A stretch of 64,000 nt of DNA from Alphaproteobacteria bacterium (GCA_052143835.1 JBKQRV010000093.1:3135-67134); one strand, 5' to 3'; positions 16,463 to 58,566 are shown, counted from the stretch's first letter. Notes: generated by a model not told the origin, from the sequence alone. Translations and numbers: made by a program.

Positions 16463-16484
16463 AAGGAGCGGGCCGGATTTGAGG

Positions 16485-31673: not shown

Positions 31674-31779
31674 CATCGCGTCGACCGGCGCGGTGGGCTT
31701 TTCATTTCGTAGCGCCGGCGGCTCGGTCGATATAGTGTCGCTGAGGCTGCGCTCCGCTTGCGCGGGAGACCCCGCTGGA

Positions 31780-34059: not shown

Positions 34060-34221
34060 GTCGCGGTAATGAGATCGGGGACCACGAGTGTCCGGCAATG
34101 TCCTGCCCAGCCGCCGCGAACCGGTGCCCGCGTCGCCCAGCCGGGCTTCTAACTCATTGACCCATCGAGTAGGGGGGGCTATACAGGGCGCCTTGTTGGG
34201 AGCCTCGACGGTGCGCGACTA

Positions 34222-35259
34222 ATGCTTGAAAAGAATCTGAACATCAATGACTTGGTGGCCGAAGTCGCGAACGAGGTGCCGCGCACCTACCGCGACCTGC
34301 TAAAGGCCGCGAACTTGTCGCGTGATGAGATCAGCAAGCTCCACGAGATCCGCGACGGACGTGCCTTGCTCGATCTCCTGGGCGCACTGGCGACGGCGGC
34401 GGCGGTCCCTTGGATATATCTGGCCTTTCCCAATCCGCTCACGGCCGTGGTTTGCGTATTGCTGACGATCCACAATTTCAACAGCTTTGCCCAGGTCGTG
34501 CATGGCAGCGATCACGGAAAGTTTCTGAGCAGCGGTCGTTGGAACGACATCTTAGGATCCCTCGGCGCAGCGCTCCTCGGCTTCACCCGCGAAGGCCATG
34601 CGCTCGCGCACCAGATGCACCACCTGGAGCTCAACACCGACGAGGACTCGGATCGAATCTGGGGACGGCCGGAGCAGTCGACGCGGGAGATGCTCGGCAT
34701 GTGGCTCCAAGACATCTTCATGATCTCCGCGGCAAAGCGTCTCCTTCAGTACATGCAGTTCGACCGCAAGACCTTCACCGCGACGCCGTGGCGAGGGCTG
34801 AACCTCGGCTTCTTCAGCGGCAAGATCGGCCGCGTCGTGCCCGTCGTCGCCGTGCAAGTTCTCGTCATCGCCTATTACTCGGCGGTGATCGGCCCGCAGT
34901 TTTACATCTATTTCTACGTGCTGCCGATTCTCACCATTTATCCGGCGCAGATCCGGCTGCGTACGGCCTGCGAGCATTGCTTCGAGGCCGGCTATCGGCC
35001 GCGCAACAGAGGAGAGCGCTGGGTGTCACGCAGCATTCGGGCGAACCTGTTCGAGCGCCTGGTGATCGCGCCGCTGCTCATCCAGTATCATTTCGAGCAC
35101 CACCTGCTGCCCGGCGTGCCCTATTACAATCTGCCGCTGGCGCGCCGAATCCTTGCGAAGAATGGCCTGGAGGTGCCGTTGGCACCCGGCTATTTCGCCT
35201 TCGTCTTCCGCCGCTGGCGCGCCGAGCGGCAGCTCGCGCGCGCTGCCGTGGCCGTCTGA
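34222..35259 (+). CDS. Membrane fatty-acid desaturase family protein
   Basis: Three His boxes (HGSDH, HQMHH, HFEHH) with hydrophobic stretches between them. Confidence 0.75.
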   Translation: MLEKNLNINDLVAEVANEVPRTYRDLLKAANLSRDEISKLHEIRDGRALLDLLGALATAAAVPWIYLAFPNPLTAVVCVLLTIHNFNSFAQVVHGSDHGKFLSSGRWNDILGSLGAALLGFTREGHALAHQMHHLELNTDEDSDRIWGRPEQSTREMLGMWLQDIFMISAAKRLLQYMQFDRKTFTATPWRGLNLGFFSGKIGRVVPVVAVQVLVIAYYSAVIGPQFYIYFYVLPILTIYPAQIRLRTACEHCFEAGYRPRNRGERWVSRSIRANLFERLVIAPLLIQYHFEHHLLPGVPYYNLPLARRILAKNGLEVPLAPGYFAFVFRRWRAERQLARAAVAV

Positions 35260-36873: not shown

Positions 36874-37327
36874 CATCGCGGGTCCTGCGGCGGCAAGCCG
36901 GTCAAGGAAGCGATGGAACGCACCCGACGTGCAGTCATTGTTATCGCCTCGACCCTTGGAATTCACGCGCCGTCTGATCGCAATACCGGTCCCAACGGGT
37001 ATACCCGGCCCGCGAATGTGGCCCGGTAGATTGGCCGGGGCAAGCCCCGCGCGCAAAAGACCCGCATTCCACCGAATCGGCCTGCGATGCGCAACCTACA
37101 GCGGCCGCTTTCCCCTGTCAAAGTCGTCGCCGCGCGGGTCTGCTGGAGGCTGGTCCCGGCGTCGGCGTCGCCGCAAGGCTCTCGCGAGCGCTGCCCTTGC
37201 GAGCGCTTGCTTGAGGAACGTGGTGTGGTAACATGGCGGCGTCACCCTTCGGGTACTCGGCAAGCTCATCGGGCCGGCGCAAGCCGGTCGCCGAATCTCC
37301 TGCTCCCATTTCGTGCGTGCGCCGCTG

Positions 37328-38722
37328 ATGCTTCACCGCCGTTTGAAACTGCTACGGACGCTCGCGGTGAACGCAGTTGTCCTGTTCGCTCTGCTCGAGC
37401 TGGCCGGCCTCGTATATTACCTGGTGCATGACGGGCATCTCTATTATCTCGCCAGAGACTCGATCGTCAGAAATCGCGTCTCCGGACCTGCTGCGGGGCT
37501 GCGCGACGTCAACGCGGAAGATTTGCGCCGCGCATTGCGGCTGGGCCTGTCGCAGACCGAATTCCGCATCAGCCCCTACTACGGCTACAACCTCGCTCCC
37601 AACGAGCGAGTTCTCGTCGGGGATTCTCGCGCGCAGGATCTGGCGCGGCCGGAGTGCAAATATCGGGTCAATGTGCTGTGCGAGAAGGGCGGCGTCTATT
37701 ACGTTACGAACAATTATGGCTTCAATTCCGTGCTGGATTATCCCTACCGGAAGCAAGGCGACGACGAGTATGTCATCGGGCTCTTCGGCGGGTCCATGGC
37801 GGTCGCCTTCGCCAAGTTTACGATGCCGGAGCTGTACGACGATATCCTGCCGCAGGTGCCCGGGCTGCGCGGCAAGAAAATCACCCTGCTCTCCTTCGCG
37901 CGCGAGGGGTTCAAGCAGCCACAGCCGCTCGCGACGCTTGCCTACTTCCTGTCGATCGGCCAACGGTTCGACCTGGTCGTCAACATCGACGGTGCCAATG
38001 AAATCATTCATGCTCTGGTCAACAACCGCGCCGGCGTCGACTACTCGATGCCTTCCGACGGGCAGATCAGGGACCTGGTAAACATGTTCAGCGCGGCCGT
38101 GTATCAAGAAACCGGCCGTCCGGCCCTGTTGAGCTTCTTTTTTTGGAAGAAGGCAAGAGAGCGGCTGTTGCTTGAGATGTCCAAGATTCCGCTCGCCGGC
38201 CCCGCCCTCCTGCTCGAGCTTGGCGCGGAGCTTGCGGGGCGCCTCGAGGCACGGGCGGAAAAGTCGGCGCTCACGCTCGATCCCTCGGCGGCGCTCGCGC
38301 AGCCCGTCTTCATTCTGCCGCAGAGACCGGGCACCTCCCCGGAACAGGCCCTCGAGCAAAGCATCGCAACCTGGCGACGGTCATCGATCCTGATGGCGGG
38401 CATGCTGCGCAGCTACGGCATCCCATACCTCCACGTCCTTCAGCCCAACCAGTATCTTTCCGCGAAACCGTTCAGCGAGGAGGAAAAGCGGACTGTGCTC
38501 AGCTGGGACAAATGGTGGGCGCAACCGATGCACGACGGTTATGTGCGCATGCTTGCGGAGTCCAAGGAATTGACCAAGGCCGGCGTAAACTTCGTCAGCG
38601 CGGTGGACATCTACGATAATGTTCGCGAGACGATATATGCCGACGACTGCTGCCACACCAATCCCGAGGGCATGAAGCTGCTGGCACGGTTCATCGCCCA
38701 GCACATCCCGACGACGCCCTGA
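37328..38722 (+). CDS. AlgJ/DltD-like periplasmic O-acyltransferase-type protein, paralog 3
   Basis: N-terminal TM; VIGLFGGSMAVAF; C-terminal DIYDNVRETIYADDCCHTNPEGMKLLARFIA. Same layout as 16485 and 17791. Confidence 0.5.
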   Translation: MLHRRLKLLRTLAVNAVVLFALLELAGLVYYLVHDGHLYYLARDSIVRNRVSGPAAGLRDVNAEDLRRALRLGLSQTEFRISPYYGYNLAPNERVLVGDSRAQDLARPECKYRVNVLCEKGGVYYVTNNYGFNSVLDYPYRKQGDDEYVIGLFGGSMAVAFAKFTMPELYDDILPQVPGLRGKKITLLSFAREGFKQPQPLATLAYFLSIGQRFDLVVNIDGANEIIHALVNNRAGVDYSMPSDGQIRDLVNMFSAAVYQETGRPALLSFFFWKKARERLLLEMSKIPLAGPALLLELGAELAGRLEARAEKSALTLDPSAALAQPVFILPQRPGTSPEQALEQSIATWRRSSILMAGMLRSYGIPYLHVLQPNQYLSAKPFSEEEKRTVLSWDKWWAQPMHDGYVRMLAESKELTKAGVNFVSAVDIYDNVRETIYADDCCHTNPEGMKLLARFIAQHIPTTP

Positions 38723-38873: not shown

Positions 38874-40319
38874 ATGAGCGATGCGCGAGCGGACCTCTTC
38901 GGGCGCAAGCGCACGATCCGTGCGCGGGCCGACCGTCAGGCGGGCGAGCGCCTCGCTTGGATCGCGCGCAACAGCTATTTCTACCGGGAGGACCACCGTT
39001 ACCTGCGCTTCCTGATTCCGCCGGGGATCAAGGTGCTCGAGCTCGGTTGCGGCGTCGGACACAGCTTGGCGGCGGTGGCGCCTGCGCGCGGAGTCGGCGT
39101 CGACTTCAGCGAGGCCACCTTGGCCGTGGCGCGCGAGCGCTATCCCGACTACGAATTTCGTCTCGGCGACGTCGAGGATGCGGTGACGCTCGAGGGATTG
39201 GGCGGACCGTTCGACGTCATCCTGCTCGCCGACACGATTGGTGAGCTCGAGGATTGCCAGACGACCCTTGTCAATCTCCGTCGGGTCGCGACGCCGGATA
39301 CGCGTATCGTCATCTCCTATTACTCGACGATGTGGGAGCCGCTCCTCAAGCTTGGCGTGTGGCTGCGGCAAAAGATGCCGCAGGAGCCGCAGAACTGGCT
39401 TTCGACCGAGGACATCATGGCGCTCCTCGAGCTCGCCGGGTTCGAGGTGGTGAAACGCGAGTGGCGCCAGCTCCTGCCCAAGCGCCTCTTGGGCCTGGGT
39501 CCTTTCGTCAACCGCTATGTCGCGACCCTGCCGCTCATCCGCCGTCTTTGCTTGCGCAATTATGTGGTGGCGCGGCCGCGGCCGACCGGCTCGCGCGAGG
39601 CGCTTTCGGCGAGCGTGATCATCCCTTGCAAGAACGAGCGCGGCAACATCGAGGCCGCGATCCGCCGCCTGCCGCGCTTCGCGGACGACCTCGAGATCAT
39701 CTTCGTCGAGGGCGGCAGCGAGGACGGCACGCGCGCGGAGATCGAGCGCGTGATGGCGCGCTATCCCGAGCGCGACATCCGCTTGTTGGCGCAGGACGGC
39801 AAAGGCAAAGCGGACGCGGTGCGCAAGGGCTTCGCGCACGCCCGCGGCGAGGTCCTCATCATCCTCGATGCCGACCTGACGGTGCCGCCGGAGTGGCTGC
39901 CGCGCTTTTACGAGGCGGTCCGTTCGGGCCGCGGCGAGTTCGTCAACGGCTCGCGCCTGATCTATCCGATGGAGGAGCAGGCGATGCGCTTTCTGAACCT
40001 TGTCGCCAACCGCGTCTTTTCACGGCTCTTCACTTGGCTCTTGAACGAGCGCCTGACCGATACGCTTTGCGGCACCAAGGCGCTTTTGAAGCGCCATTAC
40101 CGGAGGATCGCGGCCGACCGCGCCTACTTCGGCGACTTCGATCCCTTCGGCGACTTCGACCTCATCTTCGGTGCCGCCAAGCTCAACTTGAAGATCGTCG
40201 AAATCCCGGTGCGCTACGCGAGCCGGCGCTACGGCGAGACGCAGATCTCGCGCTTCAGGCACGGCTGGCTGCTGCTCCGCATGGTCATCTTCGCCTTCCG
40301 CAAGCTCAAGGCTTTCTGA
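38874..40319 (+). CDS. Bifunctional fusion: N-terminal class I SAM methyltransferase + C-terminal GT2 glycosyltransferase
   Basis: N-terminal VLELGCGVGHS and FDVILLADTIGELED; C-terminal SVIIPCKNERGNIE, ILDADLTVPPE. AAGGA lies 7 nt before the ATG; the track TTG is at 38844. Confidence 0.75.
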   Translation: MSDARADLFGRKRTIRARADRQAGERLAWIARNSYFYREDHRYLRFLIPPGIKVLELGCGVGHSLAAVAPARGVGVDFSEATLAVARERYPDYEFRLGDVEDAVTLEGLGGPFDVILLADTIGELEDCQTTLVNLRRVATPDTRIVISYYSTMWEPLLKLGVWLRQKMPQEPQNWLSTEDIMALLELAGFEVVKREWRQLLPKRLLGLGPFVNRYVATLPLIRRLCLRNYVVARPRPTGSREALSASVIIPCKNERGNIEAAIRRLPRFADDLEIIFVEGGSEDGTRAEIERVMARYPERDIRLLAQDGKGKADAVRKGFAHARGEVLIILDADLTVPPEWLPRFYEAVRSGRGEFVNGSRLIYPMEEQAMRFLNLVANRVFSRLFTWLLNERLTDTLCGTKALLKRHYRRIAADRAYFGDFDPFGDFDLIFGAAKLNLKIVEIPVRYASRRYGETQISRFRHGWLLLRMVIFAFRKLKAF

Positions 40320-40597
40320 GCCGTCGCGCGATCCCCCGCGCAGGCGCTTCGATGGCCCTTTCACCACTGCCTCCTCGCCGGCGGGCGTGCTCCCGGTGTC
40401 GATCTGCTCGCTGCGCCGGATGCATCGGCCGACCCCGGCTCGGTGTCGTCGGCAACATTCCGCGACATCGTTTCTGTTTATTTGCTGATTTCCCCGGCCC
40501 TATGGGGGCCGCTTAGAGCCTGACCGAAAAAGAGTTGAGTGATCTCAGGGTCCTTATCGAGGTGCTCACAGCGAGTGCGACAACGTACGATCCGGAC

Positions 40598-42253
40598 TCA
40601 GTAGTTCCCAGGCGCAATGCACGTCTGTTCCGGACAATACCCCTCCAATCGTTGAGGCCAAATGCAGCAGGCGCGCGACGTACAGAGCTTGTGGTCCATC
40701 AGCTCGAACAGCCACACGTCACTCGGAGAAAACGCGGCGCGCAACTTGGTGAGGTCCTCACCCGCCTGCGCCGCCCGCCAGTACTTTACGACTTTCGCCA
40801 GGGTGAGCGTTGCGCCGGGCGTAAACGGCTCGCGCCCGCCGCCCTGCACGTACATTTGGGCGTAGGCAGCTTCATAGCTGTCCATCGCCTCTCGGTTGTC
40901 GCGCAGCAAGTTTGCGCAGGACACCCAGCCGAGATAGCAGGCGGCAAGAATGCAAGCCGCGCGAGCGGCCAGCATGCCGCGAAAGCAGCCGACCGTGATT
41001 CCGATCACGACGACGGAGAAGACCGCTATGAGAGCGCCATAGTAATAGTTGGACTGGTAGCCTCCCCCGATCGGCGCCGTGATCAGACGGGACAACACAA
41101 GACCCTCGTAAATTGCACACAGGACAAGGAGAACTATTGCCCGCGCTAGCCGCCAGCGCAATTGCGCGCTTGCCCGCGCAGCGGCAGCCCCGATGCCGAC
41201 GGCGAACGGAAAAACGCTTGCGGCGGCGGCGGTCCCGACCGACCGCGGCCAGGCAAACTCAAATTTCAAGATGTTCCAAGCCGACGACAGGATCGTGCCG
41301 AGGTCGAGCTGCGCGAGCAGAGGCGACACCCACGGAGTCGCTCGCGACCCAAGATTGAACGTCCAGCCCCAGAAGTCCATAGTAGGATAGATTCCTTTGG
41401 GCCAATAGTACGTCGTAGCGATTGGAGCGAGCCAAGTGACGAACGCCAAATACAACGCGAACGTGGAGAACAGACAAATCGCCAGAGCGAGGTGCCGACG
41501 TTGGAACAGGGACGGGAACATGATGGGTAGGGCGCCATAGATAACCCAGGCGGTCTCATCGGTACAACAGGTCAGGAGCAGCGCCATATAGAGGACCACG
41601 GCCTTGGTCGAGTATGCGCGCCAATCGCCGGACTGCCAAATCTTCGCCGCCAAATATAGGCAGAAAATGACGAACGAATTAGCGAACGCCTTTGCTGGAA
41701 TCGTCATCATGAGAATGGGCGAAAGAAAGCCCTCCGAGAGCGCATAGAGTCCGACGGCCAGCCGTGCCGCCATTCTGTCCCGCGTAAGGGCGAAGACGGT
41801 GCGGTGAAGAAAATACAACGAGATGAGCGAGAAGAACCATGTCAAAGACAGACTTGGATGCGGCGGCAGATATCCGGCAAGCCAGACGCGGAACATCTGA
41901 TCCAAATGAAAAAAAAGGTACGCTAGAAACCGCCCTCGCCCGCAATCGCTGTTCAAGCAATCAAAGAAGTAACGACCCAACTGGTGCCAATTGAGCGGCG
42001 CGGACCTCAGCGTGATCGCTCCACGCAGCGAGAGCCAGCCGACCGTCGCGGGCCTCAACGGCTGCGATGCGCTGAATATGATTTCGTGTCTTATTCTCCA
42101 TTGCGGGATAAAGTTGAAGACATCGGGCCTCATCCAATTGATGCCGTAGTCCGTCAGGAAGCATGCAAGAAGCGAGAGCGATGCTGCGAGAAATAGCAGC
42201 GCCGACCAATTTTCCAGGGACCTTGCTCTGGAGAAAGCCCGTCCCGCACTCAT
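40598..42253 (-). CDS. Family-A polytopic membrane protein, paralog (D subgroup)
   Basis: GRGRFLAYLFFHLDQMFRVWLAGYLPPHPSLSLTWFFSLISLYFLHR. ATG at 42253. Confidence 0.5.
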   Translation of the reverse strand: MSAGRAFSRARSLENWSALLFLAASLSLLACFLTDYGINWMRPDVFNFIPQWRIRHEIIFSASQPLRPATVGWLSLRGAITLRSAPLNWHQLGRYFFDCLNSDCGRGRFLAYLFFHLDQMFRVWLAGYLPPHPSLSLTWFFSLISLYFLHRTVFALTRDRMAARLAVGLYALSEGFLSPILMMTIPAKAFANSFVIFCLYLAAKIWQSGDWRAYSTKAVVLYMALLLTCCTDETAWVIYGALPIMFPSLFQRRHLALAICLFSTFALYLAFVTWLAPIATTYYWPKGIYPTMDFWGWTFNLGSRATPWVSPLLAQLDLGTILSSAWNILKFEFAWPRSVGTAAAASVFPFAVGIGAAAARASAQLRWRLARAIVLLVLCAIYEGLVLSRLITAPIGGGYQSNYYYGALIAVFSVVVIGITVGCFRGMLAARAACILAACYLGWVSCANLLRDNREAMDSYEAAYAQMYVQGGGREPFTPGATLTLAKVVKYWRAAQAGEDLTKLRAAFSPSDVWLFELMDHKLCTSRACCIWPQRLEGYCPEQTCIAPGNY

Positions 42254-42875
42254 GATGCTCGGCCGGAACAGGATTCAAGGAATCCCGGTGCTTCCGCCGA
42301 TCCTTGCGCGGAAGCGACGCTCAACGCGCTGCCCCGCAGGCCGCTCCACTAGGCCACCTTGGACAGGCCCTTGCCGAGGAAATCGATGAAATGGCAGGAA
42401 ACAGCCAAGAATGCCAGAACCAGGACCAACGTGGCGGCATGGACGGCGTGGGCGTGCGACCACGGGTCGGAGTTGCCCCCAAGGCTGAAGGCGCCGGCGG
42501 CGATGCCTGCAATTCTCGGCTGTCCCGGGAATTCACGCGCGCCAGCCCTTGCGCTCCGGCAGCCGGGCTCTCGGCACGCGGCCTCCCTTGGAAGCAACGC
42601 AGGACTTGAATGGACATGTTCCGCATCTTGAGCCTGGCAACGTCGTCTGCGTGCCCATCTTTACGATAGCATGAGGTAAAGGCAGGCTGAAGTCCCTTTT
42701 GCGCAGCAACGTGACGTGGCATTCTCGCCGCTCATCTGAGGGGGGCCGGGCGGCCAAAATCGGACGTACGCACCTTCACCTCCTCGGCCCCCAAGTTCGC
42801 CGTCGATCCGGGTCCACCTTGCTGCATAGGCCGAAATGGCGCATTCTGACGCGTGCAAGGCCGGTCATTGGGGGA

Positions 42876-43859
42876 ATGTCGGCCAAGGCACCTTCATGGA
42901 TTCCTTCGGAGTGCATGACGATTTCATCGGGCAGAGACATCTCGATCGAAGTTACTCCCGTTCGCCCGCGGCAGGTGATCAAGACACCAATCGATTGTCC
43001 CGTATGCGGCTCGAACCGATACCATGTTCGCTTTCGCGACGAACTGGGCGACCTCGCCGCACACGTGGATTACGATTTTGTCCCCGAGACGCAAAAGGTC
43101 TATCAGATCGTCCGCTGCGACGATTGTGGATTCATCTATACGAATCCGGTGCCGAACCTGGCACTTGCCTATTCCGACAACGTCGATCAGGTGTACCTCT
43201 CCAGCGTGGAGCAACGGCGGCGAACCGCGACGCGCAATGTTGCCCGCCTGATGGCGCGGAATAGGGGCGGCCACGTCCTCGATATCGGCTGTGCCACAGG
43301 CATTTTCCTCGACGCGGCCGCGGCTGCGGGTTTTACCACTGAAGGCATCGAGCTGTCGCAATGGATGCGTGAAGAGGCCGGCCGCAACCACCTTGTCCAC
43401 GTCAAGCCCCTGAGTGATCTTAACTGGGAAGAGCGCTTCGACATCATTACGCTCTGGGGCGTCATCGAGCACCTCAGCGATCCAGCGCGGGAGATGCATC
43501 TCGTGTTCCGCGCACTAAAGCCAGGCGGTTATGTGTTCATCTACACCGGTAATGCCGATTCCTGGCTCGCACGGATCATGGGCCGGCGGTGGTATTGGTA
43601 CATGGGAATGCATCTCATGTATTTTTCAAGGACGACGCTGAAGCGATTGTTGACGAGGATCGGGTTTGTCGGGATTGAAACCGAAGCGCACACGACCTAT
43701 TTTTCCCTCGCCTCGCTGTCGATCAGCTTGCGGCGCTACGCTGCGCTTTCTCCGGTGGTTCGCCTTCTCCAGCATCGGTGGTTTGCTAACCGGGTCATCG
43801 CGCTGACGCTCAGTGGCGAGATGATCATGATCGCCCGCAAGCCGACGACGGCGCCGTAG
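42876..43859 (+). CDS. Zinc-ribbon + class I SAM methyltransferase (paralog of 1807..2703 and 57556..58566)
   Basis: CPVCGS..CDDCGF; VLDIGCATGIF; FDIITLWGVIEHLSDP; LKPGGYVFI. Start taken at MSAKAP; the track ORF starts at 42699. Confidence 0.7.
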   Translation: MSAKAPSWIPSECMTISSGRDISIEVTPVRPRQVIKTPIDCPVCGSNRYHVRFRDELGDLAAHVDYDFVPETQKVYQIVRCDDCGFIYTNPVPNLALAYSDNVDQVYLSSVEQRRRTATRNVARLMARNRGGHVLDIGCATGIFLDAAAAAGFTTEGIELSQWMREEAGRNHLVHVKPLSDLNWEERFDIITLWGVIEHLSDPAREMHLVFRALKPGGYVFIYTGNADSWLARIMGRRWYWYMGMHLMYFSRTTLKRLLTRIGFVGIETEAHTTYFSLASLSISLRRYAALSPVVRLLQHRWFANRVIALTLSGEMIMIARKPTTAP

Positions 43860-44063
43860 GGTCGGCACAGTACACATGACGCGCAAGGGCGCCCCGCGCT
43901 GGCTGATCGTTGCCGCATCCAATCGTTCACCGCGATCCGACGGGCAGCTTCCTGGAGCTGTTATATGGCAAGGTCTTTCTATTGTACGTCGTGCGCCCCA
44001 TCTGCGATGGGATTGTTCGTGGCAGCAAGAGGCAATCGAGTTTTCTCACGGTCTGCTCGTGTT

Positions 44064-45311
44064 ATGAAAACATCTTCAGTCTATCGTGAAATCTCGGTGT
44101 GCCGGATTTGTGGAACCAAAAACCTCGAAAGTATCCTCGACCTCGGAGTGCAGGCGCTTGCCAGCCGCTTTCCCCGTAAGGGCGAGCCGGACCCTCCGCA
44201 AGCGCCGCTCGTGCTGGTGCGGTGCACGCATTGCGGACTCGTCCAACTGCTCCATTCGGTGACGCCAGGAGAACTTTATACCCCCGGTTATGGCTACAAG
44301 TCCGGCGGCAATACCACGATGCAGGCACATCTGGCCGGATTGGCCCGTTGGGTCGAGGAACGCTGCCCGCTAAAGACAGGCGATATTATCGTCGACATCG
44401 GGTCCAACGATGGTACCTTGCTCAAGTCCTTTGCCACCCCTGGCCTCCGGCGGATCGGCATAGATCCGATCGCCGGCAAGTTCCGTGACCAGTACCCCAA
44501 TGACGTGCAGCTCCACGAAAGCTTCTTCTCGGCTGAGACCTACCGCATTGTAAGCGGTGGCGGGAAGGCTAAGGTCGCAACCTCGATCGCCATGTTCTAC
44601 GACCTGGAATCTCCCATGGATTTCGTCGCCGCCGTGAAGGCAGCGCTGCTCCCCGATGGAATATGGGTGTTGGAACAGAGCTATCTGCCAACCATGCTCG
44701 AAGCCAACGCCTTTGACACCATTTGCCATGAGCATTTGGAATACTACGCCTTGCGCCAGATCGAGTATCTAGCCGATACTTCTGGTATGCGTGTCTTTGA
44801 CGTCGAGTTGAATTCATGCAACGGCGGCAGCTTCCGTCTAGCGGTCTGCCAACGGGATGCACCCCACGCCACGCGGGAGGATCGCATCGGGCGGTTGCGC
44901 AAGCTCGAAGGAAAGTTGAAGCTGGATACCCGAGCCCCGTACGACGCCTTCAAGCGGCGGATCGACAAAGTTTGCGAAAAACTGCGGACGTTCGTAGCGG
45001 CCGAGCGTAGAGCCGGCAAGACCTTCTATCTCTATGGCGCCTCCACGAAGGGAAATACGCTCCTCCAATATTGCAAGCTGGATGCGAGCAAAATCGTCGC
45101 TGCGGCGGAGCGTAACCCGGAGAAATGGGGCTGCCGTACGCCGCTGACCGGCATCCCAATTCATTCCGAGGAGGAATGCCGCGCTGCTAGGCCCGATTAT
45201 TTCCTGGTCCTTCCCTGGCATTTTCGTAATGAGTTCGTCGAACGCGAAGCCGAGTTCTTGAGATCCGGCGGCAAGCTCGTCTTTCCTTTGCCCGATTTGG
45301 AAATCGTCTAG
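44064..45311 (+). CDS. Sugar C-methyltransferase (TylCIII/NovU-type, zinc-binding N-domain + MTase + C-terminal domain)
   Basis: CRICGTKNL..CTHCGLVQL zinc knuckle; IVDIGSNDGTLL; CHEHLEYY; C-terminal FYLYGASTKGNTLLQY. Start taken at MKTSSVY; track start 43965. Confidence 0.7.
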   Translation: MKTSSVYREISVCRICGTKNLESILDLGVQALASRFPRKGEPDPPQAPLVLVRCTHCGLVQLLHSVTPGELYTPGYGYKSGGNTTMQAHLAGLARWVEERCPLKTGDIIVDIGSNDGTLLKSFATPGLRRIGIDPIAGKFRDQYPNDVQLHESFFSAETYRIVSGGGKAKVATSIAMFYDLESPMDFVAAVKAALLPDGIWVLEQSYLPTMLEANAFDTICHEHLEYYALRQIEYLADTSGMRVFDVELNSCNGGSFRLAVCQRDAPHATREDRIGRLRKLEGKLKLDTRAPYDAFKRRIDKVCEKLRTFVAAERRAGKTFYLYGASTKGNTLLQYCKLDASKIVAAAERNPEKWGCRTPLTGIPIHSEEECRAARPDYFLVLPWHFRNEFVEREAEFLRSGGKLVFPLPDLEIV

Positions 45312-45313
45312 GA

Positions 45314-46273
45314 ATGGGTACCGCACCTCGGGCTCTCGTCATCGGCGCTGCGGGCCAGGATGGTTCCTACCTCTGCGAGCAGTTGAGGGCGGACGGCCTG
45401 CAAGTCTTCGGCCTGACTCGCCAGGGGCTGAGCGGCCCCGACGGGGCCGAACGGCAGTCGGTCGCCCTATCTGACCGCACTGCCATGGCAGGGCTGATCG
45501 CGAACGGCGGCTTCGATCAAATCTATTACCTCGCCGCCTACCACCATTCGTCCGAAGACCGCCTCGACGCGGAAACCGACATTGTGCGGCGCAGTCTTGC
45601 GGTGCACGTGGACGGGTTGGTCAACGTTCTCGACGCCCTGGTTGCCATCCGGTCGCGCGCGGCACTGTTTTACGCCGCCTCTTCTCATGTCTTCGGCGTC
45701 GTCACGGAAGAGCCTCAGACCGAGCGAACGCCGCTGGCACCGGTCTGCGCCTACGGCATCTCCAAAGCCGCCGGCGTCCAACTCTGTCAATTCTACCGCC
45801 ACGACCAAGGCTTACGCGCCAGTGTCGGGTTCTTGTTCAACCATGAATCGCCGCGGCGGCCCCTGCGTTTCCTTTCGCGCAAGGTCGCCCGCGCCGCCGT
45901 CGAGATACGGCGCGGATTGCGCCGTCAGGTGCGCCTGGGCGACCTTGCGGCGCGCGCAGACTGGGGCTATAGCCCGGAATATACCGACGCCATGCGCCGC
46001 ATCCTTGCTCTCGAAGAAGCCGGCGACTTCGTCATCGCCTCTGGCCGCGGGGCTGCCGTCCGCGATTTCGTCGCGGCCGCCTTCGCCCGGGTCGGATTGG
46101 ACTGGCGCGAGCATGTGGTGATCGATCCGTCGCTGGTTCAGAAGGTCAACCGCGGGTCCCTGGTTGGGAATCCCGCAAAAATCGCGCGGGCAACGGGATG
46201 GTCTGCGCGCACCACTTTGGAGGAATTGGCGGCTCTCATGGTGGATGCGGAATACGCCGCTGTCGAGGCCTGA
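45314..46273 (+). CDS. GDP-mannose 4,6-dehydratase-family NAD(P)-dependent SDR (Rmd-like; catalytic Glu not conserved)
   Basis: ALVIGAAGQDGSYLCEQL; FLFNHESPRRP (GMD-family signature); YGISK (YxxxK). The position aligned to the GMD S/T-S-E triad reads SSH. Confidence 0.7.
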   Translation: MGTAPRALVIGAAGQDGSYLCEQLRADGLQVFGLTRQGLSGPDGAERQSVALSDRTAMAGLIANGGFDQIYYLAAYHHSSEDRLDAETDIVRRSLAVHVDGLVNVLDALVAIRSRAALFYAASSHVFGVVTEEPQTERTPLAPVCAYGISKAAGVQLCQFYRHDQGLRASVGFLFNHESPRRPLRFLSRKVARAAVEIRRGLRRQVRLGDLAARADWGYSPEYTDAMRRILALEEAGDFVIASGRGAAVRDFVAAAFARVGLDWREHVVIDPSLVQKVNRGSLVGNPAKIARATGWSARTTLEELAALMVDAEYAAVEA

Positions 46274-47805
46274 TGCGCGACCAAATCCGAACCCTCGTGA
46301 TGATCCCCACATACAACGAAGCAGAGAACGTCGAACTCATCGTCACCGAGATCCGCGCCACAGGCCTCGACCTCGACCTCCTTTTCGTCGACGACAATTC
46401 GCCCGATGGCACCGGCGCCATTCTCGACCGCTTGGCCGCCGAATACCCGCGTCTCAAAGTCCTGCATCGATCCGGGAAGCAGGGCATCGGTTCGGCCCAT
46501 ATGGCGGGCGTCCGTTGGGCCTACGAGCACGGATATACGAGGCTGGTGACCATGGATTCGGATTTCAGCCACTCGCCATCCGATATCGGGCGTCTATTGT
46601 CGGCCGGCGACGACGTCGACGTGGTGGTTGGCTCGCGCTTCATCGGTCCCCACAGCCTCGATGGCTGGGCGTGGAATCGGAGGCTGTTGACCCATCTCGG
46701 CCATTTCCTCACCACCATCTTCCTCGATCTGCCGCTAGACTGCACCAACGCCTTCCGCTCGTATCGACTCGATCGCATTTCTGCCGGCATTTTCGAGATG
46801 GTGGGGTCGAGAGGCTATTCATTTTTCTATGAATCGCTGCACCGGCTGAATGTCAATGGAGTGAGGATTTCACAAATCGCGATCGACTTGCCGCCGCGCA
46901 CCTACGGCCATTCCAAGATGAAGCTCAAGGACATCCTGCAGAGCGTCCGGTTCTTGTGGCGCCTGGGCTGGCGCACCCGGCTCAATCGCGCTTCCTTGAT
47001 TTACGTGGCGCCGTTCGACGGCGTCGACACCGGCGATAAAGCCCAGGCGGCTTGGGAATCCTATTGGAGCGGCGCGGGGCACGAGGGCAAGTGGCTCTAC
47101 GACTTGGTCGCCGCCATCTACCGGCGTTTTATCATCCGCCCAGCGGTTACCCATTTCCTGAGCAACACCTTCGGCACGGGCGCCAAATTGCTCCACGCCG
47201 GCTGCGGCACCGGCGTGGTGGACATCGGCGCCTACGATCGCTTCAACATCACCGCCTTCGATATTTCGCCGCGAGCGCTTACCGAATACGCCCGCCATCA
47301 CGCGGGGCGAGCGGTGCTCCTGCAGGGTAGCGTGTTCGCGATTCCCGCCGAGCCAGGAAGCTACGACGGTGTCTTCAATCTCGGTGTCATGGAACATTAT
47401 ACCGAGGAGGAGATCGCTCGCATCCTCAGCGAATTCCGCCGCGTGCTGAAGCCTGGCGGCCGAATTGTTCTGTTCTGGCCGCCGGTCTATGGGCTTGCGA
47501 CCCAGGCGCTGAAGCTCATCCATTATGTGCTGAGGCGGATCATGAAGAGGGATATCGCGCTGCACCCGCCGGAACCGACGCAGGTGAGGTCGCGCCGGCA
47601 GATCGAAGACTATTTGGGCGCGACGGGCTTTAAATTGGAAGTTTATTATTTCGGGATTCGCGACATGTTTACCCATCGCATAATCAGTGCGGTGCGCTCT
47701 GGCGAGGAGACATCCGCCGCGACGAGGAGCCGGCCGCCCACGGCGTCGACGCGCGGGAGTAGAGCCAGCGATGAGGAGTCTGGCGCGGCCGTCAAATCTC
47801 GTTGA
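46273..47805 (+). CDS. Bifunctional fusion: N-terminal GT2 polyprenyl-phosphate sugar synthase-like domain + C-terminal class I SAM methyltransferase
   Basis: N-terminal VMIPTYNEAENV, LFVDDNSPDGT, VTMDSDFSHSP; C-terminal LHAGCGTGVV, VFNLGVMEHY, LKPGGRIVL. The ATG overlaps the upstream stop (TGATG). Confidence 0.75.
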   Translation: MRDQIRTLVMIPTYNEAENVELIVTEIRATGLDLDLLFVDDNSPDGTGAILDRLAAEYPRLKVLHRSGKQGIGSAHMAGVRWAYEHGYTRLVTMDSDFSHSPSDIGRLLSAGDDVDVVVGSRFIGPHSLDGWAWNRRLLTHLGHFLTTIFLDLPLDCTNAFRSYRLDRISAGIFEMVGSRGYSFFYESLHRLNVNGVRISQIAIDLPPRTYGHSKMKLKDILQSVRFLWRLGWRTRLNRASLIYVAPFDGVDTGDKAQAAWESYWSGAGHEGKWLYDLVAAIYRRFIIRPAVTHFLSNTFGTGAKLLHAGCGTGVVDIGAYDRFNITAFDISPRALTEYARHHAGRAVLLQGSVFAIPAEPGSYDGVFNLGVMEHYTEEEIARILSEFRRVLKPGGRIVLFWPPVYGLATQALKLIHYVLRRIMKRDIALHPPEPTQVRSRRQIEDYLGATGFKLEVYYFGIRDMFTHRIISAVRSGEETSAATRSRPPTASTRGSRASDEESGAAVKSR

Positions 47806-48037: not shown

Positions 48038-49525
48038 ATGTTTGATGGAAGGGCGCAAGGTGCGCGGTCCCGAACCTCGCGGCTCGAGCTTTACGTGGCC
48101 GCGCTTTTTTGCTTCGCATCCCTGGTCGTCGTCGCGCTTTGCGTGACGGACTACAGCATCACCTGGATGCACCCGGAAGTGTTCCTCGCGGAACGCAAGC
48201 ACGTGCTGGCTTTGACCGAGCTTCATTGGCGCGACGTCGCGCGCTTTTTCGATTGCGAGGCATTATCGGACATCTGCGCGGAGGCGCGTTTTCTCTCGTA
48301 CTTGACGGGCTATGTGAATTCCTTCTTCCGCCTGTGGCTCGTCCAATATATTCCGCCGCACCCCAGCATCAGCATAACGTGGCTGCTGTCGTTCGCCTCG
48401 CTTTATTTCTTCTACCGCGCGATCGTCCTGCTCACGGATGATCCACCCGCCGCCCTGCTCGGCACGGGGCTGTACGCGCTCTCCGCCGGTTACCTCTCCT
48501 CGCTGCTCATGCTCTTCAATCCCGCCAAGGCGCTGGCCGGCTTCTTCGTCAATTTCTGCCTGTTCCAGGCGACGCGGATCCGGCGCGCGCCCGACCACAG
48601 GGCTTGGTCCGCCGCGGCGGTCATCTTGTATCTTTCGCTCTTCCTCGCCTACTGCTCGGATCAGAGCTGCTGGTTCCTGTGCGGGGGCATCCCCGTTCTG
48701 TTGGTGGAATGGCAGCAGCGCCGCGACTGGCCGTTCCTCGCGTGCGTCGTCGCGACGTTCCCGCTCTTCCTGGCGTTCGTGACTTGGGCGGCACCGGTGA
48801 TCGTGAGATCGCTTTGGGGTTATACGGATTTCGAGTTCTGGAGTTATGTGTTCAATGTCGGCCGAGCGGCCAAGGGGGTGCCGTTCCTGGACCGGCTGAA
48901 CGTGCGGACGCTTGGCGCCATCGCGTACAACATGCTGCATAGCGAGTTCACATGGTGGCGCTCGGGATCGACGGTCGCCGCCCTCAGTCTATTGCCCTTG
49001 GCCGCGGCCATCCTCGCCGCTGCCGGCCTTGCGGGCCGGCAGATGCGGCTGCTTCTTGCCCGGACCGTGCTCCTGTTCGCGCTCTTTACCTGCTACGAGA
49101 GCCTCCTCCTGACTCGTCATTTCGTCGAGGCCGGCACTTTTTACTATGGCGCGCTCTTCCCGAATTTCGCGCTTCTCATGGTCGCCGTCGCGATCAGCTG
49201 CCTGCGCGGCGTCCGCACCGCCCGCGCCGTGGCCTGCTTGGCGGCGATCTATCTCGGCTACATCTCCTTCACTTGGTGCATGTCCTTCAACCGCTATTGG
49301 ATGGGCGTACACGACCGTTTGTACGCGAGGACGGACTTGGTCCCGGAGGACTATGGCCCGCTCACCCTCGGGGCACCTTTGAGCGAGGCCAAGGTCGCCG
49401 CCTACTGGCGGGCCGCGCGGACCGGCGATGACTTTCGCCGCCTGCGGCCGTCGTTCGCGCCCAGGGACATGTGGCTCTTCGAGGAGCTGGACGCCTGGCG
49501 CCGGCGGCAGGGGCTCGATCGCTAA
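48038..49525 (+). CDS. Family-A polytopic membrane protein, paralog (D subgroup)
   Basis: AEARFLSYLTGYVNSFFRLWLVQYIPPHPSISITWLLSFASLYFFYR. ATG at 48038. Confidence 0.5.
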   Translation: MFDGRAQGARSRTSRLELYVAALFCFASLVVVALCVTDYSITWMHPEVFLAERKHVLALTELHWRDVARFFDCEALSDICAEARFLSYLTGYVNSFFRLWLVQYIPPHPSISITWLLSFASLYFFYRAIVLLTDDPPAALLGTGLYALSAGYLSSLLMLFNPAKALAGFFVNFCLFQATRIRRAPDHRAWSAAAVILYLSLFLAYCSDQSCWFLCGGIPVLLVEWQQRRDWPFLACVVATFPLFLAFVTWAAPVIVRSLWGYTDFEFWSYVFNVGRAAKGVPFLDRLNVRTLGAIAYNMLHSEFTWWRSGSTVAALSLLPLAAAILAAAGLAGRQMRLLLARTVLLFALFTCYESLLLTRHFVEAGTFYYGALFPNFALLMVAVAISCLRGVRTARAVACLAAIYLGYISFTWCMSFNRYWMGVHDRLYARTDLVPEDYGPLTLGAPLSEAKVAAYWRAARTGDDFRRLRPSFAPRDMWLFEELDAWRRRQGLDR

Positions 49526-49646: not shown

Positions 49647-51185
49647 TCAATGGTCCACCGCGCGCAGATGGCTGATGTAACGCAGCTCGCACACGAGATA
49701 GAGGGCGCCCACGGGTATGGGCGCCTCCCGCAGGCGCTCCTCGAGGCGGCCCTGTCGCCACGCGGTCCAAAGCTCCTCGAGGATCGCATGACTGACCGGC
49801 AGCTTTTCGTCGACCGCGACGGCGTTGCCCATCTCATGGGGAACGAGGCCATTTGTTTTCAAGGACAGGAGGTTCGTCGCCTCGGCCACACCTTGCTGTG
49901 CGACGGCCGTATTGTGGATCTGCATGGCGACGATCAGGGCGGTCGCGACGACAAAGGCGACGCGCAGCCCCGCGCGCTCCCGACGGATCGCTGCGAACCA
50001 GATGCCGAGCATGAGCGCAAACAGGACAGCGAAGACCGAGCCGTAATAAAAACCGTACGCCCATCCGCCGTGGCGGCCCTGGACCGCGGCGAAAAATATC
50101 AGGAATGCCGCCATCGTGATGCCGCACCGCGCCGTCAATCTGCGGCGGGCCGGGCTCAAACAGCCGCGGCAGAGCGCGAGTGCCGCCAGCCCAAGGACGA
50201 AAAGCGGCACGCATATGATGTATGTCGCGAGCTCCGACGACGGCGCGCCCAGATCGGCTCCGGCAAAAAGCTGAAATACGTTCTTGGTCTCGAGCGGAAC
50301 GATAGCGCTTCCGAAGAGGGCCAGAAAGTTGAGCGCGAGCGTGCGCAACGAAAACATGCCGAACGGCCCCGTGGTCCCCTTGCTGTTCAAGATGGCGCCC
50401 ATATAGTCGAAATGATAATGAAAATAATGCTCGGTGATCATCGGCGCGAAGACGATGGCGAAGAGGAAAAACGCGGCAAGGGGTAGCGCCAGAATGGCGA
50501 GGTTGACCGCGGCGGCACTCGTGCCCCGCGCTGTCCATGCAGGCGGCAGGAAACGGCCCGGGAACAGCAAAACCAGCAAGGGATAGGCGAAGAGAGGCAT
50601 CTCGTCGAGGAAGGGCCCGAAAAAGAGGAGCACCAGCAGGGCATATTTCCGCCATCTCGGTATGAAGAACAAAAAAGTCCCGGGAGCTGCCTGACGATCG
50701 AGTCCGGAGGCCAGGAAGAGGGCGACGATGTACACCACATTGGACAAGGCTTTTCCTGACGCCAAGCCGAAGGTGAATCCCGAGAGGAAGCCGACCGACG
50801 AGAGATAAACGGCCAGCGTAAGCCAGGCGGCTTGCTTGTCTCGCGTGACGTTCTGCATGAGTCTGTAAAGGCAATAAGGCCCCAAGATGAGTTGAAATAG
50901 CCATGACAGCGAAAGGGTTGGCGGTATGACGAAATAGTCGTAGAGAAAATATCGCAAGTGAAAATCAAGCAGCGCCACGAAATACATCAGAAATCTTGGC
51001 CTGTTGCCATCCGGATCTCCAAAGTTATAAAACATGTTCAAGAGATCTCCCCACCTCAGGGGAAGATGCCCCTGCATCAGGCCCAGGGCGTCGGCGATGT
51101 AAAATTGCGGGTCGACGGCGGCGTTTTCGTAGCCGGATAAATAAAACAGGGCAAAAATCGCGGCCACGATGGAGGCAGCGATCAT
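49647..51185 (-). CDS. Family-A polytopic membrane protein, paralog
   Basis: NRPRFLMYFVALLDFHLRYFLYDYFVIPPTLSLSWLFQLILGPYCLYR. First ATG at 51185; track TTG at 51227. Confidence 0.5.
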   Translation of the reverse strand: MIAASIVAAIFALFYLSGYENAAVDPQFYIADALGLMQGHLPLRWGDLLNMFYNFGDPDGNRPRFLMYFVALLDFHLRYFLYDYFVIPPTLSLSWLFQLILGPYCLYRLMQNVTRDKQAAWLTLAVYLSSVGFLSGFTFGLASGKALSNVVYIVALFLASGLDRQAAPGTFLFFIPRWRKYALLVLLFFGPFLDEMPLFAYPLLVLLFPGRFLPPAWTARGTSAAAVNLAILALPLAAFFLFAIVFAPMITEHYFHYHFDYMGAILNSKGTTGPFGMFSLRTLALNFLALFGSAIVPLETKNVFQLFAGADLGAPSSELATYIICVPLFVLGLAALALCRGCLSPARRRLTARCGITMAAFLIFFAAVQGRHGGWAYGFYYGSVFAVLFALMLGIWFAAIRRERAGLRVAFVVATALIVAMQIHNTAVAQQGVAEATNLLSLKTNGLVPHEMGNAVAVDEKLPVSHAILEELWTAWRQGRLEERLREAPIPVGALYLVCELRYISHLRAVDH

Positions 51186-51644
51186 CGCCCCTATGAATCC
51201 GTCCTGATGGTCTCGTATGCCCTGCAATATCGAATCCCACCTGGCATCCGCGCAATATGCCGACGCTTGGCCGAATCTACGCGCCCTTGGCCGCAGGCGC
51301 CAGGGTCGCGATGTCCAAGGTCACGAGGAGATAGTTTCTGGACGAAGCTGCCGCGTTCTCGCCTTCTTCACCCCAGCGACCGGTGCGCTCGAGCTACTCC
51401 CCGTACGGGCGCGAAAGGGCCAAGTCGGCCATTAGAGAATGGTGCGCGCCGCGCCCGGCGCCGGAAGCCTTGCGGAAGGCGCCTTTAGGCTTCCGCGTAT
51501 CCCAGCCGAATGTTATCTTTCTTGGTCATTTGGGGACTGTCGGCAGAATGGCTTCGCCGTTCGTCGCAAGACGGCGACTGGCGGACCAGCGGCGGGTGAC
51601 GTCGGGCGCCGAGGTGCGGCGATTCGCGTGAGGGGACGAGCGCA

Positions 51645-52970
51645 ATGGTCGTTTCGAGGGCTGGAGACATGCGCGAAATCCGGGTTCCCTACGACGACGA
51701 AATCGTGTTGCGCGTGCCTGCGGGCGAAGCCGCTTCCGAGCCGCTCCTTTCGATCGTGATCCCCGCGATGGACGAAGCGGCCGTGATCGGAGAATTTCTC
51801 GGCTGGTGCCGCGAGGGAATCGCGAAGGCGGGAATCGCCGCCGAGATCATCATTGTCGACAGCTCCAGTGACCGCACGGGGGAGATCGCCCTTGCCGAAG
51901 GCGCGCGCGTGCTCACGACGCCGAAACGCGGGCTCGGACGCGCCTATATCGATGCCATTCCCTTCATACGCGGCCGGTATGTGCTGATGGGCGACGCCGA
52001 CTGTACCTATGATTTCCGGGAGCTGAACGGGTTTGTCGAAAAGTTGGAGCAAGGCTACGAGTTCGTCATGGGATCGCGCTTTGCGGGCGCCATCGAGCCC
52101 GGGGCGATGCCGGCGCTGCATCGTTACTTCGGCACACCGCTCACGGGTGCCATTCTGAATCTGATATATGGCACGCGGTTCTCCGATATCCATTGCGGGA
52201 TGCGCGGTGTGACCCTAGCAGCGTTGCGCGCGATGATGCTGCAGTCCCAGGGATGGGAATATGCGTCGGAAATGCTGATCAAGGCGACGCGACTGGGCCT
52301 GCGGACCGGCGAGACGCCGGTAAAGTTCCTGCGCGACCGCGCGGGCCGCGTAAGTCATCACAGGCGTGCGGGATGGCTCTCTCCCTGGGCGGCCGGATGG
52401 AACAATCTAAAGGCGATGCTGGTCAGCGGGGCCGACTTCTTTCTGATCAAGCCCGGCCTGGTGCTGCTGGCGATGGGCCTTGCGCTGATGCTGGCGCTGG
52501 TCGGTGGACCGATCACGGTCGGAAGGGTCACGCTCTCTCTGAACGTAATGATGCTGGCGCTGACGATGGCGGTGGTGGGCCTGCAGGCCTGCCTGCTGGG
52601 CGGGGTGGCGCGCTCGCTGTACGACCTGCTCGGGCGGCAACGAACGCGCTGGCTCCAAGCGTTCTCCTATACGCGAACGACTCTGTTGTCGCTCCTGATG
52701 TTCGTCGCGGGACTGTGGCTGACTGGCAATTTCGTCGTGGAATTCGTCAACGCCGGCTATGCGATGCTGCCGCAGGAAACGGCGGCCAATCATCGAGCGG
52801 TATTCGGATTGTTCATGATCATCGCGGCGTTTCAGATCTTCATGGCGATGCTCCTGATGCATGGCGTGGCGGGTTTCGCCCCGCTTTACGACGCCAATAG
52901 CGTCGCCACCAGGGAGGCAGGCGTGGCGTCAAGAGGGGAGAAATTCAATCGGGCGAAGGTGGCGGAGTGA
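51645..52970 (+). CDS. GT2 polyprenyl-phosphate sugar synthase-like glycosyltransferase with C-terminal multi-TM domain
   Basis: LSIVIPAMDEAAVI, IIVDSSSDRTG, LMGDADCTYD; about 4 TM in the last 170 aa. Confidence 0.75.
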   Translation: MVVSRAGDMREIRVPYDDEIVLRVPAGEAASEPLLSIVIPAMDEAAVIGEFLGWCREGIAKAGIAAEIIIVDSSSDRTGEIALAEGARVLTTPKRGLGRAYIDAIPFIRGRYVLMGDADCTYDFRELNGFVEKLEQGYEFVMGSRFAGAIEPGAMPALHRYFGTPLTGAILNLIYGTRFSDIHCGMRGVTLAALRAMMLQSQGWEYASEMLIKATRLGLRTGETPVKFLRDRAGRVSHHRRAGWLSPWAAGWNNLKAMLVSGADFFLIKPGLVLLAMGLALMLALVGGPITVGRVTLSLNVMMLALTMAVVGLQACLLGGVARSLYDLLGRQRTRWLQAFSYTRTTLLSLLMFVAGLWLTGNFVVEFVNAGYAMLPQETAANHRAVFGLFMIIAAFQIFMAMLLMHGVAGFAPLYDANSVATREAGVASRGEKFNRAKVAE

Positions 52971-57555: not shown

Positions 57556-58566
57556 ATGAGTGATCTTGGAAGCCGCCGCGAGAGGGACGTTCGGCCGCCG
57601 GGCGGCCTAGCGACGGCCGGTCGTGGACGCACGCGGACGCCCACCCCCGCATCGGACACGCCAAGATGCAGCGTCTGCGGCTGCAGCGAGCGCGTGCCCG
57701 TGTTCCATGCCCGCGATTACGAGCACGGCGTGCCTGGCGAATGGCTGGTCGTTCGCTGTCCCCGATGCAATCTCATGTTCCTCTCGCCGATGCCGGCGGA
57801 CGAGGAGCTGGCTTCATTTTACCCTTCGAATTACTCGGCCTATCAAAGCGGTTCGCCGTTGGCCTGGTTGTTTCGTAGCGTCTATCGACTCGACGCGCGG
57901 CGCATTCGGCGGCTCATCGGCGAGCGCGGCCGCATTCTCGACGTCGGCTGCGGCAACGGCGATGCGCTTCTCCAGATCGGGCCGTACGGAAAGTGGGACC
58001 TCTGCGGCGTCGAGCTGAACGGTGCGGCGGTCGAGAAGGCCAGGAGTGCCGGTGTTTCGGTCCAGCAAGGTGACCTCGCCAGCTGCAATTTTCCGGATGC
58101 GAGCATGCGGCTCATCCGCATGGGGCACGTCATCGAGCACGTGCCCCGGCCGGCCGACACCTTGCGGCGTGCCTATGCGTTGCTGGAGCCGGGGGGCGTG
58201 CTCTATGGCGAGACGCCGAGCACGGATTGCCTCGATTTTCGTTTGTTCGGCAAATACTGGGGGGCTCTCCACGTCCCGCGCCACCTTTTTTTCTTCGACG
58301 GGCGCAATCTGAGGCGCGCGTTGGAGCAGGCCGGCTTCGTCGACGTGTCGATCGCGCCGCGGCTGAGGACGGTCGGTTGGTCGTGCGGCGTGCAAAATTA
58401 CCTGGCCGACCGCGCCGGCCTGCGCATACCGGAAGCGGGCCGCGTGCGCTGGTATCTACTTCTCATCATTTGTTTTCTTCCGCTCACGCTCCTGCAGTCG
58501 CTATCCGGCAAGACGGCGACCGTCGCGTTCACGGCGCGCAAACCCGGCGGCGTGGGCCGTCGATGA
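57556..58566 (+). CDS. Zinc-ribbon + class I SAM methyltransferase
   Basis: CSVCGCSE..CPRCNLMF; ILDVGCGNGD; IRMGHVIEHVPRP; LEPGGVLY. Confidence 0.7.
   Translation: MSDLGSRRERDVRPPGGLATAGRGRTRTPTPASDTPRCSVCGCSERVPVFHARDYEHGVPGEWLVVRCPRCNLMFLSPMPADEELASFYPSNYSAYQSGSPLAWLFRSVYRLDARRIRRLIGERGRILDVGCGNGDALLQIGPYGKWDLCGVELNGAAVEKARSAGVSVQQGDLASCNFPDASMRLIRMGHVIEHVPRPADTLRRAYALLEPGGVLYGETPSTDCLDFRLFGKYWGALHVPRHLFFFDGRNLRRALEQAGFVDVSIAPRLRTVGWSCGVQNYLADRAGLRIPEAGRVRWYLLLIICFLPLTLLQSLSGKTATVAFTARKPGGVGRR

Follow-up and report, generated by a model that had tools for sequence, protein, structure and literature searches.

We analysed a stretch of 64,000 nucleotides from Alphaproteobacteria bacterium (GCA_052143835.1 JBKQRV010000093.1:3135-67134), called the window below, which has a G+C content of about 62% and which, judging by its predicted genes, is in its entirety a glycan locus. 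Our subject is two of these genes, A and B, each of which joins a class I S-adenosylmethionine (SAM)-dependent methyltransferase (MTase) to a family 2 glycosyltransferase (GT2):

38874..40319, + strand: fusion A, MTase-GT2, 481 amino acids (aa), from Pfam, NCBIfam and Protein Data Bank (PDB) matches and from alignment
46273..47805, + strand: fusion B, GT2-MTase, 510 aa

An earlier reading of this DNA, made from the sequence alone, had described two fusions of opposite domain order, and the Pfam boundaries, numbered here on the longest open reading frames (ORFs), bear this out. Fusion A consists of an N-terminal class I SAM methyltransferase (aa 46-204, Methyltransf_31, E 1.7e-16), a conserved linker and a C-terminal GT2 (Glycos_transf_2, PF00535, aa 257-417, E 2.2e-27), while B begins with a GT2 resembling dolichol-phosphate mannose synthase (DPMS) (PF00535, aa 34-171, E 6.1e-24) and continues through amphipathic helices into a C-terminal class I SAM methyltransferase (aa 317-480, Methyltransf_11, E 1.7e-15). 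Both reading frames are free of stops and frameshifts. The longest ORF of A opens upstream at TTG 38844; we prefer the ATG at 38874 because it lies 8 nt past an AAGGAA motif and yields 481 aa, the modal length of the homologues. The longest ORF of B likewise opens upstream, at ATG 46198, and here we prefer 46273 because it overlaps the stop of the preceding gene (TGATG) and agrees with the N-termini of all 21 aligned homologues.

The sequence-only reading had named the loss of SAM-binding residues as one way in which it could fail, and these residues are in place. Invariant among 18 A-family sequences are LGCGxG (G58/C59/G60/G62), D77, D99 and D114 of the MTase and the DxD motif of the glycosyltransferase (D332xD334); among 22 B-family sequences the same is true of HAGCGxGxVD (G310/G312/G314/D317), D330, N369, E374 and H375 of the MTase and of D40/D41 and D95xD97 of the glycosyltransferase. 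A glycine-rich motif I, an acidic residue ending beta-2 and a Rossmann-like fold place the methyltransferases in class I, and the GT2 halves of both proteins are of the GT-A fold, their DxD motif and catalytic residues being conserved. Neither protein has a transmembrane (TM) helix. Each has an amphipathic one, at the C-terminus in A (aa 461-478, hydrophobic moment muH 0.57) and after the GT-A domain in B (aa 218-242, muH 0.68); the tail of B lacks both order and conservation from about aa 479 on. These properties bear on the idea that the MTases are catalytically inert, SAM-sensing or scaffolding modules that substitute for a missing membrane anchor of the GT2, an idea that would suit the fact that the two unfused GT2s of the same type in the window (3642..4784 and 51645..52970) carry C-terminal TM helices and A and B none. 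We regard it as very unlikely, since in families whose members are 50-95% identical no residue of the SAM motif varies, nor do further acidic, Asn and His positions, and since the locus has many other MTases that look active.

Both fusions belong to large families. The A family has at least 8000 matches, all at E 1e-10 or better, the best 120 homologues being 64-95% identical over their full length, and a scan of one genome per species gave at least 581 confirmed loci. Its hosts include Bradyrhizobium japonicum, Afipia birgiae, Nitrospira, Magnetococcales, Omnitrophota, Elusimicrobiota and Terriglobia, and NCBI names its members 'glycosyltransferase' or 'bifunctional class I SAM-dependent methyltransferase/glycosyltransferase family 2 protein'. 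The B family comprises 2351 proteins at E 1e-10 under the JGI label 'dolichol-phosphate mannosyltransferase'; a metagenome scan with the B alignment found mainly stand-alone DPMS-like GT2s, both halves being present in only 13 loci, 11 of them from that scan. Domain order is constant within each of the two families, and matching domains of A and B are distant (27% identity between the GT2s, and 25%, at E 0.03, between the MTases). This divergence, together with the existence of two large families of constant order, indicates that the A and B fusions are independent, as the sequence-only reading had suggested; that these were events in this lineage does not hold, since both fusions date far back and have a wide distribution. 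A single ancestral fusion that was later circularly permuted was rejected on the same identities and the same separation of families. An artefact of assembly, whether a gene split by an overlooked stop or a frameshift, was also rejected, because the ORFs are continuous and full-length homologues of the same order number in the thousands. As the architecture of A and B occurs widely and has its names at NCBI, it does not constitute a new protein type, and the novelty first claimed for it was overstated.

The GT2 halves are by sequence closest to the polyprenyl-phosphate glycosyltransferase class (DPMS, ArnC, GtrB) and not to polymerising GT2 modules. Searches of PDB sequences returned the Pyrococcus DPMS 5mlz (E 7e-17 for A and 1.3e-21 for B) as well as ArnC and GtrB, and the best NCBIfam matches were AglJ, PpgS and ArnC, with AglJ the best for A. 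The nearest solved relatives are carrier-loading enzymes, rather than polymerising or soluble GT2s. The sequence-only reading had raised a polyprenyl-phosphate-linked sugar as a possible substrate, and this link is strengthened by these matches and by the GT-C-fold partners that adjoin both genes (below). A polyprenyl-phosphate mannose synthase domain that has no TM helix, is active and supplies GT-C enzymes is known from mycobacterial Ppm1/D2 (PMC3485146).

The MTase halves are class I domains of a generic kind. That of A weakly resembles N-methyltransferases of nucleoside diphosphate (NDP)-aminosugars (TylM1-type, CalS10; E ~0.005), its best named matches being phosphoethanolamine and phospholipid N-methyltransferases, and the structural neighbours of B, in a flat list of matches, include the peripheral-membrane, lipid-substrate methyltransferases UbiG, PmtA and ChlM. 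WbdD is absent from the full phmmer list of B at E<=10 and from the matches listed for the A MTase (60 of 80, phmmer), and the Pfam and NCBIfam output for A and B contains no kinase family. The sequence-only reading had pointed to WbdD, whose MTase caps a glycan polymerised in the cytoplasm, and a terminating MTase-GT2 fusion does exist in Klebsiella pneumoniae O7 ORF6 (PMC11231755). For A and B, a capping role of this kind (WbdD, O7 ORF6 or WsaE-type) is the least probable of the explanations that we weigh, and the comparison does not support the suggestion: B is predicted to fold into two compact domains and lacks a long coiled coil, in A the MTase (46-204), the GT2 (247-481) and a short linker take up the 481 aa, neither has a kinase or specific similarity to the WbdD methyltransferase, and the GT2 halves look like enzymes that load a lipid carrier, not polymerases. 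Wzm/Wzt are missing from the window as well. As had been remarked from the sequence, there is no ABC transporter in the 64 kb: Pfam ABC_tran matched no window ORF of 200 aa or more, and no Walker A motif or P-loop ATPase was found across six frames.

The genes next to A and B encode membrane proteins of a family, here called fam1, with six paralogues in the window and no Pfam or NCBIfam model:

48038..49525, + strand: fam1 polytopic protein with a GT-C fold, no Pfam model, downstream of B
40598..42253, - strand: fam1 paralogue, 41% identical to 48038..49525, convergent with A
49647..51227, - strand: fam1 paralogue
19414..21165, + strand: fam1 paralogue
28369..30015, + strand: fam1 paralogue
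31693..34059, + strand: distant fam1 member (profile E 3e-26) with about 12 TM segments

The product of 48038..49525 has the conserved N-terminal TM module and long first external loop of the GT-C fold in its predicted structure. The family is small: of 1.84 billion representative proteins searched, its profile picked out only 520 clusters at E<=1e-3. Three fam1 genes stand in tandem in the related locus L169.

Neighbourhoods of A homologues elsewhere, counted over 71 loci, point in the same direction. A polytopic protein or flippase-like gene lies within four genes of the A homologue in 47 of them; PF03706 flippase-like genes were found near it in 12 (mostly directly upstream), PMT/PMT_2 GT-C genes in 10, FkbM methyltransferases in 10 and Gmd in 13. 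A further class I MTase directly follows the A homologue (+1) in 27/71 and lies within four genes of it in 30/71, and the order flippase, A, MTase, PMT_2 recurs (L009, L021, L023, L027 and L043). Genomic partnership with GT-C and flippase genes is visible at three levels: in the GT-C-fold neighbours within the window, in the PMT_2 and PF03706 genes of A-family loci, and in a PMT_2 gene at the B-family locus L091. The same neighbourhoods bear on whether the GT2 halves glycosylate some other acceptor, such as a glycolipid, hopanoid, diacylglycerol or small molecule, with the MTase modifying the aglycone or head group. Glyco_transf_21 (the ceramide glucosyltransferase family) figures in the Pfam lists of many A homologues, the phosphoethanolamine and phospholipid N-methyltransferases named above are the best named matches of the A MTase, about one third of A-family loci lack a membrane partner, and a P450 lies near the Nitrospira A-family loci; all of these would fit. 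We nevertheless consider another acceptor decidedly unlikely, given that DPMS, ArnC and GtrB match best over the full domain, that the recurrent neighbours are GT-C, flippase-like and Gmd genes, and that at least six GT-C-fold proteins in the window require lipid-linked donors.

Fusion B lies in an operon, downstream of three further genes:

42699..43859, + strand: stand-alone class I methyltransferase (Methyltransf_23; Pfam), head of the B operon
43965..45311, + strand: NDP-hexose C-methyltransferase (Methyltransf_13, _23 and _14), from Pfam and conserved synteny
45314..46273, + strand: Gmd-like short-chain dehydrogenase/reductase (SDR), its stop overlapping the start of B

A homologue of the TylC3-type C-methyltransferase lies immediately upstream of the B-family genes in all nine loci with enough upstream DNA, and in most loci a Gmd-like SDR sits between the two. 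The nearest relative of the window SDR is Pseudomonas aeruginosa Gmd (E 5e-54), but it has SSH where Gmd has S/T-S-E, so that the catalytic Glu is replaced by His. This Glu is also lost in 7/7 aligned cassette SDRs from other loci (8 with the window copy), its place being taken by His, Arg or Leu (window SDR, L002, L005, L087, L088, L094, L096 and L166), and the Glu-less SDR is always directly upstream of the B-family gene. Several of the same loci contain a second SDR in which the catalytic Glu is intact, that is, a canonical Gmd. From this pattern of residues, the product of 45314..46273 is probably a 4-ketoreductase or epimerase and not a dehydratase. Most B-family loci are flanked by polytopic proteins, L091 having a GT-C of the PMT_2 type. 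The loci of this lineage are plastic and ridden with insertion sequences (IS). In sample ERZ25039587, homologues of A (80% identical) and B (89%) lie on separate contigs, so that A and B are not co-localised there; the cassette with the B homologue (L166, contig_66716) stands amid many IS and transposase genes, and its C-methyltransferase gene is truncated to 173 aa.

Taken together, we think it rather probable that A and B each act at the cytoplasmic face as one part of a three-component extracytoplasmic glycosylation system, a concept that has been reviewed (PMC11127046), in which methylation is carried out in the cytoplasm and most probably on the lipid-linked sugar. The GT2 half would move a sugar from a nucleotide sugar to polyprenyl phosphate, as do DPMS, Ppm1, ArnC and GtrB; the donor would most likely be a GDP-linked 6-deoxyhexose that stems from GDP-mannose. 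The fused MTase would then methylate this sugar while it is still on the cytoplasmic side, most likely when it is already a monosaccharide on the lipid; the methylated polyprenyl-phosphate sugar would be flipped across the membrane; and a GT-C-fold membrane glycosyltransferase would take up the flipped donor on the periplasmic side. For B, a Gmd encoded elsewhere in the genome would probably supply GDP-4-keto-6-deoxymannose, to which the C-methyltransferase would add a C-methyl branch before the Glu-less Gmd-like SDR reduced the 4-keto group; B would probably then load the branched sugar onto the carrier and methylate it again. The identity of the sugar, the carrier lipid, the stage of methylation (lipid- or nucleotide-linked), the methylated atom and the acceptor glycan are all matters that we infer. 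SAM is available in the cytoplasm only, so a methyl sugar that is to be installed by a GT-C enzyme needs to be methylated before export, and this need could account for the fusion of an MTase to a carrier-loading GT2 twice, in either order. Methylation at a lipid-linked stage has a precedent in Haloferax AglP, which acts on a dolichol-phosphate-bound glycan (PMC3871713).

Within the same three-component pathway, the fused MTase might instead act on the nucleotide sugar before transfer, the fusion serving to channel a methylated NDP-sugar into the GT2. We hold this to be unlikely. It would sit well with an operon in which an NDP-sugar-modifying C-methyltransferase and a Gmd-like SDR precede B, and with the faint likeness of the A MTase to TylM1-type enzymes and CalS10; the lipid-acting UbiG, PmtA and ChlM among the structural neighbours of B point the other way, and by sequence the two orders of events are indistinguishable.

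Several observations weigh against methylated carrier loading as proposed here. No nucleotidyltransferase and no canonical Gmd were found in the window, and in 24 of the 71 A-family loci the nearest four genes include no membrane partner. When the fam1 profile was run against the ORFs of all A- and B-family loci, it found no match outside close relatives, and fam1 is absent even beside an A homologue that is 95% identical. The specific pairing of A and B with fam1 is lineage-restricted, and because fam1 does not accompany A and B homologues outside this lineage, the pairing would be with GT-C-type proteins generally and not with one family. Finally, our literature search found no experimental characterisation of either family or of any polyprenyl-phosphate glycosyltransferase/MTase fusion, which is not proof of absence.

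The remaining genes of the window allow a broader and more tentative proposal. It encodes four GT2s of the carrier-loading class (A, B and the two unfused ones), ten MTase domains (including the two fused ones and one sugar C-methyltransferase), three membrane acyltransferases and twelve polytopic membrane proteins of 495-876 aa, 11 of which have no Pfam match; the sole Pfam signal in the twelfth, 58227..60857, is a weak, sub-threshold match to YfhO at the C-terminus. Pfam searches of the ORFs found no Leloir glycosyltransferase of family GT4 or GT1, initiating transferase, Wzx or Wzy in the 64 kb, and the intergenic gaps of the window contain no small GtrA-like flippase ORFs. The features relevant to carrier loading and flipping are:

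6028..7056, + strand: flippase-like membrane protein (PF03706 / TIGR00374), sole flippase candidate in the window
51645..52970, + strand: third polyprenyl-phosphate-glycosyltransferase-like GT2, AglJ/DPMS-like, with C-terminal TM helices and no fused MTase
3642..4784, - strand: fourth polyprenyl-phosphate-glycosyltransferase-like GT2, PgfS/ArnC-like, with C-terminal TM helices

It is conceivable, and we put it forward tentatively, that the fused MTases make methylated (and, in the case of B, also C-methyl-branched) lipid-linked donors from which at least six, and possibly twelve, unclassified GT-C enzymes build a heavily methylated periplasmic glycan, with no use of Leloir glycosyltransferases, Wzx/Wzy or ABC export.

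Other features of the window are recorded here in their own right. A two-gene module of a fam1 GT-C protein and a second polytopic protein is duplicated (19414..22938 and 28369..31673; 59% and 57% protein identity), the second family (21313..22938 and 30012..31673) having no Pfam match. Further large polytopic proteins, all but that of 58227..60857 without a Pfam match, are encoded at 23073..25592 (- strand), 25795..28209, 58227..60857 and 35..1675, those of 25795..28209 and 58227..60857 being 40% identical; all four may be additional GT-C enzymes. The ORFs 31693..34059 (788 aa) and 31758..34160 (800 aa) share a strand in different frames, and as TM helices and the fam1 match occur in the first only, the second is probably a shadow ORF of high-GC DNA. 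Genes for TPP-dependent E1 alpha/beta-like subunits, two DegT-type aminotransferases, a PIG-L deacetylase and an MBOAT protein follow in series at 9964..16462 and look like a pathway that yields an O-acylated sugar bearing an amino group and/or a two-carbon branch. The MBOAT gene is directly followed by those of two adjoining paralogues (16479..17645 and 17629..19035; 51% identical), each with one N-terminal TM helix and no Pfam match. A gene of the fatty acid desaturase family (34222..35259) lies inside the glycan locus, and the close relative L167 has this gene at the corresponding position. Upstream of A, 37313..38722 encodes an unannotated protein with one N-terminal TM helix; it and its relatives in L167 (6362..7756) and L169 (16308..17702) are 464-469 aa long, with 96% and 56% identity in these close relatives.

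Methyl sugars are common in bacterial surface glycans. By the routes known to us, methylation takes place in the cytoplasm and acts on a nucleotide sugar or on a finished chain. Should both families indeed methylate the monosaccharide donor on its lipid carrier, theirs would be a third route, one that would explain methyl sugars in glycans extended outside the cytoplasm, where SAM is absent. If, further, the battery of GT-C enzymes acts as tentatively suggested above, the locus would parallel, in a Gram-negative bacterium, the assembly of mycobacterial lipoglycans. The conserved cassette of C-methyltransferase, Glu-less Gmd-like SDR and GT2-MTase offers a concrete pathway that could be reconstituted, and A orthologues in the cultivable Bradyrhizobium and Afipia, such as WP_212278682 of Bradyrhizobium japonicum and WP_019198146 of Afipia birgiae, open the hypothesis to genetics, Nitrospira being a cultivable host as well.

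Among known systems, the chain terminators WbdD and O7 ORF6 resemble A and B in pairing a class I MTase with GT2 modules, in O7 within a single polypeptide. The O7 protein is arranged as MTase, kinase, carbohydrate-binding module, coiled coil and two GT2 modules (PMC11231755). The kinase, the coiled-coil ruler, the polymerising GT2s and the dependence on Wzm/Wzt that mark these terminators have no counterpart in A and B. The genes upstream of B match the enzyme set of virenose-type pathways, which make 3-C-methyl-6-deoxyhexoses derived from GDP-mannose; the route proposed for Coxiella virenose involves a Gmd-family enzyme, a TylC3-type NDP-hexose C-methyltransferase and a reductase (PMC3539893). 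In those pathways the NDP-sugar goes to Leloir glycosyltransferases, whereas the next gene in the B cassette encodes a predicted carrier-loading GT2 with an extra MTase. Haloferax volcanii combines AglJ, the best NCBIfam match of the A GT2, with AglP, a SAM-dependent methyltransferase acting on a dolichol-phosphate-bound glycan (PMC3871713). There, however, the two are separate proteins, AglP targets the hexuronic acid of a lipid-linked tetrasaccharide, and the final transfer is made to protein by an oligosaccharyltransferase.

The closest likeness is to the three-component systems GtrB/GtrA/GtrC, CsbB/GtcA/YfhO, ArnC/ArnEF/ArnT and mycobacterial Ppm1 with its GT-C enzymes, in which, as we propose for A and B, a GT2 carrier loader works with a flippase and a GT-C enzyme. 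The best structural matches of A and B (DPMS, ArnC and GtrB) come from these systems, and in the window a GT-C-fold partner adjoins. GtrB, ArnC and DPMS have TM helices; A and B have none and in this resemble Ppm1/D2. The flippase candidate of the window belongs to PF03706, compared with GtrA, ArnEF or a MATE protein in the known systems, and its GT-C partners form a family without a Pfam model. No described member of these systems carries a fused methyltransferase, as both A and B do. The architecture itself is catalogued and not rare; what would be new is the coupling of methylation to carrier loading within a three-component system.

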